DNA of 64,000 nt. It comes from Shigella phage sb4. The translations under genes and the position numbers were made by a program. The notes under the pieces are model-generated. The model ran no database searches and had not been told where the DNA came from. It was given only the letters and a program-made list of their open reading frames with translations. The stretch is taken from the sequence record PQ666542; one strand, written 5' to 3'. Below are positions 41,249-41,560 of the stretch, piece after piece (the stretch's first letter is position 1; each line of letters starts with the position of its first letter).

Positions 41249-41289
41249 AAGCCTTGCGGCAACCTTGTCGGGGTTCCACCTGCTAAGGC

Positions 41290-41560
41290 AAGTGTTTGTA
41301 CGAAACGCCGGGATTCGAACCCGGTTATTAAGCAGTTGACGCTACTCAATATTTTTAAAAGGCCATATCTCGACCATATCCGAACGTTCCGTCAAAAACG
41401 CTACTCGGCTTACGGCAAAGATATTTCCTCGAATCGATAATTCTGTGCGCCGTTTCTGCTGTGATGTAAGGGGAAATTAACAGATCGTAAAGATTTGTTA
41501 ATGCCAGTCCTTACCCAGGGAACATCAGTCCGACGACTTACCGGTAGCGACCCGGTTTCT
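41290..41560 (-). ncRNA. tRNA-like structured RNA region (possibly rnaC/rnaD-type stable RNAs)
   Basis: No ORF; contains T-arm-like CCGGGTTCGAATCCCGG (41308-41324) and GC-rich stems next to the tRNA cluster; no canonical cloverleaf resolved by eye. Confidence 0.3.

Follow-up and report, generated by a model that had tools for sequence, protein, structure and literature searches.

Two small RNA genes, rnaD (species 2 RNA) and rnaC (species 1 RNA), have been known in phage T4 since the 1970s, where they close the transfer RNA (tRNA) operon. In T4, the tRNAs and the species I and II RNAs all derive from a single primary transcript, the end of which lies beyond species I (PMC2330249), and both small RNAs are stable late RNAs for which northern-blot validation has been reported, the only phage probe described being RNAC (PMC9697503). 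Moreover, in a T4-like phage adapting to Escherichia coli ECOR34, the rnaD homologue acquired one convergent single nucleotide polymorphism (SNP) in all lines (PMC12685909). Here we analyze the corresponding locus of Shigella phage sb4, using as window a stretch of 64,000 nucleotides (nt) from record PQ666542 in which the RNA genes lie on the minus strand. We assign a probability of roughly 0.9 to the reading that this locus represents the last two genes of the tRNA operon, rnaD and rnaC, succeeded by a 3' trailer and a terminator. Both genes are already known in T4, and finding them in a T4-like genome is ordinary; however, the comparative models offer concrete, mutable features for addressing the fifty-year-old question of what rnaC and rnaD do.

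Identity of the locus

The phage of the window is a T4-like Tequatrovirus, and the 511 nt around the locus match 768 phage records, the best at 96-99% identity. Its minus strand harbors a head-to-tail array of ten tRNAs from 42396 to 41565, as detected by ARAGORN and Rfam, in which tRNA-Arg(UCU) is the last (41565-41640, minus strand; 63.5 bits to the Rfam tRNA model; 3' end ...CUCGA followed by an encoded CCA). The array lacks segB, as in RB3, while T4 has segB upstream of tRNA-Arg. Two of the ten tRNAs, tRNA-Pro (42072-42145) and tRNA-Gln (42324-42396), do not encode CCA and both abut the next tRNA; the other eight do encode it.

Beyond tRNA-Arg, the locus can be aligned over its full length to the rnaD and rnaC annotations of T4 (NC_000866 and the older record X03016), RB3, RB33, T2L and GiZh, and in NC_000866 rnaD and then rnaC follow directly after tRNA-Arg. 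An earlier sequence-only reading had suggested that the position corresponds to that of T4 rnaC and rnaD, and this suggestion is correct since the T4 annotations align over the homologous stretch. Its two alternatives, a degenerate tRNA or a novel small RNA, are on the other hand not needed; the tRNA-like acceptor/T-arm half of rnaC is real but belongs to a conserved RNA with compensatory changes rather than to a decayed gene. The orthology to the annotated T4 genes, the operon context, the terminator, the folds and the distribution of the two families over phage genera are established by this analysis.

Gene coordinates were transferred from the NC_000866 annotation via the sequence alignment. 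The rnaD orthologue spans 120 nt (41563 to 41444, minus strand), is annotated as rnaD in RB3, RB33 and T2L, and scores 133 bits against the family covariance model. After a 6-nt spacer, GAAUUA (41438-41443, minus strand), the rnaC orthologue covers 139 nt by the NC_000866 definition (41437 to 41299, minus strand; 167 bits against its family covariance model), or 137 nt by that of X03016, which extends from acceptor base 1 to the discriminator U (41436 to 41300, minus strand). Small hairpins (CACUUGC-CUUA-GCAGGUG and others) are found in a conserved 3' trailer (41250-41298, minus strand) that is kept even in relatives where rnaC is lost, and an intrinsic terminator with a 10-base-pair (bp) stem and a U tract (41248 to 41225, minus strand, within an element covering 41220-41248), annotated in GiZh and X03016, closes the tRNA/rnaD/rnaC unit.

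As in T4 (T4s001 in NC_000866), rnaC is the last RNA before the operon terminator, sharing the T-arm, the acceptor and the hairpins with its T4 counterpart. Only two substitutions separate the two genes (137 of 139 bases shared, 98.6% identity to T4 isolates including the reference), and rnaC is 100% identical in many Tequatroviruses, among them RB27, Kha5h and others annotated with rnaC. Overall, rnaC was found in 745 phage records, at an identity of at least 99% in 490, and is 97-100% identical across about 680 Tequatrovirus records. The rnaD gene, found in 734 phage records, is 88-99% identical to those annotated as rnaD, with identical ends and a more variable center. Compared to T4 rnaD (T4s002), it equally starts 1-2 nt past the tRNA-Arg CCA and has an identical core of 48 nt at the 5' and 25 nt at the 3' side with the same fold, whereas several positions of the apical domain are different; in phages with the T4 apical type, the overall identity to the rnaD of the window is about 88%. 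The tail past the basal helix also differs, being ACAG here and ACCA in T4.

The stretch bears the features of structured RNA. Folding of 352 nt yields -126 kcal/mol (z = -5.9 versus shuffles), with z = -4.55 for rnaC alone, and the GC content is 0.43-0.48 in the structured stretch compared to about 0.33 in the flanking open reading frames (ORFs). That 41250-41560 holds no plausible ORF, as read from the letters alone, is confirmed: between 41564 and 41221 there are only ORFs with TTG starts and of at most 58 amino acids (aa), overlapping the structured RNA. The same holds for the T-arm-like element perceived at 41308-41324, which reads CCGGGATTCGAACCCGG on the plus strand and CCGGG-UUCGAAU-CCCGG on the transcribed minus strand. 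The T-loop motif GGTTCRANYCC occurs nine times in the window, all on the minus strand between 41311 and 42345, eight in tRNAs and one in the rnaC T-arm, while shuffles predict 0.22 occurrences.

The sequence-only reading had further proposed an Rfam scan, with a missing covariance-model match, together with the lack of a stable transcript, counting against its proposal. Such a match is indeed missing, as Rfam 15, at gathering score and with E up to 10, returned no family for rnaC or rnaD but only sub-threshold noise (tRNA-Sec, isrK, anti-hemB and others). Since Rfam 15 contains no family for either RNA, this is however uninformative as a refutation and is not evidence against rnaC and rnaD. 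Within 41221-41564 no tRNA match reached gathering score, the best relative being tRNA-Sec with 16.6 bits (threshold 47, E = 2), and the single match of transfer-messenger RNA (tmRNA) type, 10.1 bits, covered the T-arm alone and does not identify a tmRNA. ARAGORN called no tRNA or tmRNA in the rnaD/rnaC stretch.

Folds and spread of rnaC and rnaD

The rnaC fold was evaluated on 19-22 sequences. In its 54-pair structure 90-91% of the cells are paired, as opposed to about 40% with the partners slid, and double-sided changes are present in 31-34 pairs, with the observed values reached by 0 of 500 shuffles. As judged from this covariation, rnaC is an upper-half tRNA mimic on a four-way junction, in which two long hairpins replace the D arm and the anticodon/variable arm. 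Congruent with this, ordinary tRNAs match the rnaC covariance model through the acceptor and T-arm only (E of about 1e-5 in a multi-locus search and 4.6e-08 for one locus alone), which is why we regard the resemblance as confined to the upper half.

The acceptor stem comprises 7 bp, formed by CGAUUCG (41430-41436, rnaC positions 2-8) and CGUUUCG (41301-41307, positions 131-137; both minus strand), with two of the seven pairs being tandem U·U. Its A-U pair in the T4-likes is replaced by G-C elsewhere, for example in Karamvirus, and in Pectobacterium phage PM2 the tandem U·U is exchanged for U-A, U-A. A short helix, AGG/CCU, then opens into hairpin 1 (41365-41424, minus strand, rnaC 14-73), which takes the place of the D-arm as a long and bent arm with the apical loop UUGACG (41395 to 41390). 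Double-sided changes affect 16 of the 20 pairs of its helix 2 and five of the six apical pairs, and the arm exists in two unrelated sequence versions with the same fold. An A-rich linker leads on to hairpin 2 (41326-41351, minus strand, rnaC 87-112), which has a 10-bp stem with nine covarying pairs and the loop CGUCAA (41341 to 41336), and a single A separates it from the T-arm (41308-41324, minus strand). The latter has a 5-bp stem, the middle pair of which covaries (U-A in 13 sequences and G-C in seven). A tRNA-like coaxial stack of a 7-bp acceptor and a 5-bp T-stem, combined with a T-loop of the UUCRANY type, is present in rnaC.

The two hairpin loops, UUGACG and CGUCAA, are exact reverse complements, for which the chance is about 1 in 4096 for two 6-mers, and the resulting loop-loop helix is 99% paired across the alignment. 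Both are invariant in most lineages, with two exceptions. In the Klebsiella Marfa-like phages GACG of loop 1 is changed to GGCG and CGUC of loop 2 to CGCC, an A-U to G-C swap that maintains pairing, while PM2 keeps the GACG/CGUC core. From this pattern, an intramolecular kissing-loop contact between the two, which would lock the rnaC body, is most likely. In the Kanagawavirus copies (L010, L014, L027 and L030), UGCAUGC replaces UUCGAAU as the T-loop and the junction UGGCC is UCGCC, turning the invariant GG into CG; this paired change, present in a single lineage, hints at a possible contact of D-loop/T-loop type, similar to G18/psi55 of tRNA. A mutual-information scan for tertiary pairs in rnaC was uninformative, being dominated by the split between two clades.

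Among known RNAs, a canonical tRNA (RF00005) shares with rnaC the stack of acceptor and T-stem, the UUCGAAU T-loop, the discriminator, the location in a tRNA operon and the predicted ribonuclease P (RNase P) site; yet rnaC lacks the D-arm and the anticodon arm, carries long hairpins with putative kissing loops in their place and is 139 nt long. The tRNA-like domain of tmRNA (SsrA) likewise imitates the upper half of a tRNA, its non-tRNA body being placed after the 5' strand of the acceptor and before the T-arm, and tmRNA is processed by tRNA enzymes, as rnaC would be. In contrast to tmRNA, rnaC has neither a tag reading frame nor a series of pseudoknots, and the alanine identity pair G3·U70 is found only in PM2. 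YrlA (RF02553) is another stable non-coding RNA with a tRNA-like module of T-arm and acceptor-like type, but its sole match in the region (18.6 bits, gathering 69) lies over tRNA-Arg and tRNA-Asn and not over rnaC or rnaD, and no Ro/Rsr-binding helix was identified.

Homologues of rnaC are present in Tequatrovirus, Mosigvirus, Karamvirus, Kanagawavirus, Moonvirus, Gelderlandvirus, Mosugukvirus and the Klebsiella Marfa-like phages. Outside the T4-likes, most genera have the gene embedded among the tRNAs of the array, as a rule flanked by tRNA-Trp and tRNA-Gly. No copy was found with the rnaC model in the Vequintavirinae loci searched, a scan of metagenomes for homologues recovered T4-like copies and one false match only, and neither rnaC nor rnaD showed BLAST similarity in 5,426 E. 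coli genomes. A relaxed viral scan added solely an unrelated, odd tRNA-like gene on a 77-kilobase IMG/VR contig (L061, 5932-6019), located upstream of a tRNA cluster, with the acceptor GCCGGAG/CUCCGGU, a T-arm and an encoded ACCA; it is not called by ARAGORN and is unrelated to rnaC by the covariance model.

Public annotation of these genes is uneven. The 3' portion of rnaC, about 94 nt, is annotated as tRNA-Lys(ttt), tRNA-Met or tRNA-OTHER in G4507 (L007, 646-739), PG7 (L006, 1246-1340), G9062 and many Tequatrovirus records, and many records place coding sequences (CDSs) for a 'hypothetical protein' over rnaC and rnaD. The tRNA-Lys and tRNA-Met calls in G4507 and PG7 stem from an alternative acceptor pairing between CGGAACG (47-53) and the 3' end. 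We rejected this pairing, which acquires an A×C mismatch in Karamvirus, Kanagawavirus and Moonvirus, the same change improving the internal hairpin. Similarly, CUUUUAA was dismissed as a tRNA-Lys anticodon loop, as it is not conserved between genera. The tRNA and CDS calls over rnaC and rnaD are annotation artefacts; lacking an Rfam family for either RNA, automated annotation passes over the locus or covers it with spurious CDSs or tRNAs.

Turning to rnaD, its fold of 24 pairs is 92% paired, compared to 29-47% when slid, with double changes in 11-17 pairs. By the same comparative criteria, rnaD is a short 5' hairpin followed by a long irregular hairpin with an invariant basal helix, a CCC bulge and a freely varying tip. 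The 5' hairpin (ACCGG-GUCGCUA-CCGGU, 41540-41556, minus strand) has a covarying stem, ACCGG/CCGGU alternating with GCAGG/CCUGC, UCGGG/CCCGA and AUCAGAA/UUCUGAU. The basal helix consists of GUCGUCG (41531-41537), assigned from RNAalifold and pair counts, and CGGCGCAC (41445-41452; both minus strand), supported by pair counts and the X03016 sequence; the annotated T4 rnaD ends in ...GCGCACCA. Here, the invariant stretch AAGUCGUCGG pairs with ACGGCGC, retaining a constant U·G and a bulged U, and in distant members the helix displays compensatory changes from G-C to C-G and from G-C to A-U.

The invariant CCC bulge (41518-41520, minus strand) resides within a conserved UCCCUG and is flanked by a covarying helix, U40-U43/A104-A107, with double changes at the alignment-column pairs 41-111, 43-110 and 44-109. 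Compensatory changes are also seen in the 4-bp helix, which appears as GAUG/CAGCAG, GAAG/CAGCUG and GAGA/CAGUCG. For this middle helix, the register of the single-sequence minimum free energy fold and one set by hand were both dropped in favor of that of RNAalifold, since only the latter explains these three variants together. Past the CCC bulge, the tip occurs in at least four unrelated versions. A hammerhead ribozyme (CUGAUG...GAAAC) was also considered for rnaD and discarded: there is no Rfam match, and the core is neither conserved nor unpaired, because ACUGAUG is replaced by CACUUUA in Karamvirus and the core bases are paired in the fold supported by covariation, with U40-U43 bound to A104-A107.

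The distribution of rnaD encompasses many Tevenvirinae genera as well as Vequintavirinae (phages A5-4 and W70), with an invariant core from one subfamily to the other, and weaker members detected by the covariance model belong to Jiaodavirus, Mosugukvirus, Kanagawavirus, the Marfa-like phages and others. The homologues start a few bases after a tRNA CCA in every locus with an examined 5' flank, a set that excludes most of the weaker matches. In Vequintavirinae, A5-4 contains two copies (L037, 609-712 and 1503-1625) and a further locus one (L038, 1492-1595), each directly following a tRNA (Met, Tyr) on its 3' side; further structured RNAs may be present in the large untranslated gaps next to these copies. 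Since Karamvirus has rnaD and rnaC at different places of the array, the two are independent modules. In bacterial genomes the rnaD pattern gave 20 matches, all in genomes of 52-74% G+C and none in Enterobacteriaceae; 18 lie in stop-free frames of 247-1320 codons and two in frames of 84 and 105, and all 20 are taken as chance.

Processing and possible function

How the two RNAs would mature can be outlined from coordinates and from analogy with T4 and E. coli tRNA maturation. They would be co-transcribed with the tRNAs, and RNase P would cut at the 5' end of rnaC; such cleavage is proposed because the 12-bp stack of acceptor and T-arm and the U at -1 fit the rule of the enzyme, and the predicted site coincides with the 5' end in X03016. 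At the other end, an invariant discriminator U (41300, rnaC U138) is followed by ACA in the T4-likes and Karamvirus and by an encoded CCA in the Klebsiella and Pectobacterium phages. The 3' trailer would then be trimmed and CCA added, which is plausible as the tRNA-Pro and tRNA-Gln of the operon also lack an encoded CCA. In X03016 the species 1 RNA runs from the acceptor-initial C to the discriminator U, 137 nt. Sequencing of the RNA reportedly gave a length of 140 nt, which would correspond to these 137 nt plus CCA. Finally, rnaD would be left over as the structured piece between tRNA-Arg and rnaC.

Regarding function, we tentatively favor the view that both are non-essential, stable, protein-binding RNAs that may tune host-specific fitness. 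In this scenario, the target bound or titrated by rnaC would be a factor recognizing the acceptor/T-arm 'elbow' half of tRNAs, and rnaD would offer a bulged helix to a host or phage protein. Protein binding is preferred because unpaired bases are under extreme sequence constraint, the two rnaC loops would be engaged with one another and hence unavailable as seeds, the genes are dispensable in some phages, and rnaD carries an adaptive SNP. A more specific version, which we consider doubtful, pictures rnaC as a CCA-ended 'half-tRNA' effector locked by the kissing loop, acting as a decoy or inhibitor of host factors or defence toxins that target the acceptor/T-arm, or as a chargeable adaptor, with rnaD as another, self-contained protein-binding module carried along by tRNA arrays in unrelated phage subfamilies. 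If true, the pair would represent a previously unrecognized class of RNA effectors borne by phage tRNA operons.

Several points weigh against this view. Both RNAs were still termed of 'unknown function' in 2010, 2022 and 2025 (PMC3014915, PMC9697503, PMC12685909). The rnaC tail of the window itself is UACAA and not UCCA, and processing and CCA addition are deduced from coordinates and analogy. The support for the kissing loop consists of invariance and a single compensatory event in one lineage, making it a good hypothesis and not a proven contact, and rnaD may owe its stability simply to its structure. In addition, some relatives keep rnaD and have precisely lost rnaC: in the JS10-like L040 (393-540) and L041 (1601-1460) it is cleanly deleted, with rnaD joined straight to the rnaC 3' trailer (...GGCGCACCGA continuing directly into ACACTTGCC...), and rnaC is consequently dispensable at least in these two.

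Such clean loss could equally be anticipated if rnaC were a degenerate or pseudo-tRNA and rnaD a spacer, that is, functionless leftovers of the array that are stable through their structure and their position between processing sites. The acceptor stem and T-arm retained by rnaC, the weak tRNA matches to its model, the tRNA-Lys, tRNA-Met or tRNA-OTHER calls made by some annotators for part of the gene and a phenotype that is not known according to the literature (PMC3014915) would also suit this explanation, which we nevertheless deem unlikely. Across the approximately 680 Tequatrovirus records rnaC is 97-100% identical, while the neighboring T4 tRNA-Arg differs in sequence; compensatory changes preserve also the non-tRNA parts, and loop and junction bases are invariant across genera. 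Neither the rnaD core, unchanged from Tevenvirinae to Vequintavirinae, nor the convergent adaptive SNP in rnaD (PMC12685909) is expected of remnants.

We do not think that rnaC and rnaD are base-pairing regulators. As small, abundant, late RNAs (PMC9697503) with conserved single-stranded stretches, GGCCUUUUAAAAAU in rnaC and UCCCUG in rnaD, they could in principle act in trans on host or phage messenger RNAs via exposed seeds, in the manner of Hfq- or ProQ-type small RNAs. However, the 6-nt loops that are most strongly conserved in rnaC probably bind one another, and its junction varies between genera except for a few As, rendering this improbable; the absence of BLAST similarity in the 5,426 E. 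coli genomes points in the same direction, although it is a weak test for short seeds.

It is also rather improbable that rnaC is a functional molecule that can be aminoacylated in the way of the tRNA-like domain of tmRNA, with a role at the ribosome or as an amino-acid donor. The 7-bp acceptor, the T-arm, the invariant discriminator U and the CCA encoded in two lineages are compatible with charging, and the X03016 span of 137 nt, from acceptor base 1 to the discriminator, fits post-transcriptional addition of CCA. Yet there is neither an anticodon arm nor a tag ORF, ARAGORN calls no tRNA or tmRNA and the Rfam tRNA and tmRNA models remain below threshold. Tandem U·U in the stem is furthermore unusual for a charged tRNA, and as the three initial pairs of the acceptor are not the same in all genera (C-G/G-C/A-U, C-G/G-C/G-C and A-U/G-C/G·U), rnaC is without a visible fixed set of acceptor identity elements.

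Lastly, that the region codes for small proteins, as implied by the 'hypothetical protein' CDSs of some GenBank records and by ORFs of 32-58 aa on both strands, can be practically discounted, since TTG serves as the start codon of the ORFs listed (32-58 aa), of which the one of 58 aa overlaps tRNA-Arg, substitutions track RNA pairing in a compensatory manner rather than codon structure, and curated T4 records annotate the loci as RNAs.

Irrespective of the explanation, useful handles for functional work are provided in rnaC by the half that resembles a tRNA, by the two invariant and complementary loops and by the tail reading U-CCA in some genera, and in rnaD by the invariant CCC bulge and the spread into Vequintavirinae.

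Neighboring sequences

Upstream of the locus, the tRNA-Tyr of the array scores only 30.2 bits against the Rfam tRNA model. T2L and G4507 have an ORF of about 350 bp (trna.2 in T2L) inserted between tRNA-Arg and rnaD, which the window lacks, and ime09 and PE37 possess an insertion of the same size somewhere in this stretch.

The consensus of the T4 late-promoter -10 element, TATAAATA, is found on the minus strand directly past the operon terminator (41211-41218), 41 nt upstream of the ORF 41170..40697, and again at 42733-42740 (minus strand), about 340 nt upstream of tRNA-Gln and in the same relative place as PL2 in the T4 record X03016. The count in the whole window is not above chance, with 14 occurrences versus 11.

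Downstream, the interval from rnaC to e.8 is free of ORFs on the T4 map, while RB33 and G4507 have a 474-nt ORF there; as T4 is without it and these two phages carry one, the ORF 41170..40697 looks like an insertion relative to T4. It shares with the following ORF, 40571..40008, only the N-terminus MK(S/T)YA(Q/E)FL(N/T)EA. Near-identical terminator hairpins, AGCCCCAACCGAAAGGTTGGGGCT (41225-41248) and AGCCCCGACTGAAAGGTTGGGGCT (40666-40689), both on the minus strand, are located after rnaC and after the next ORF, respectively.

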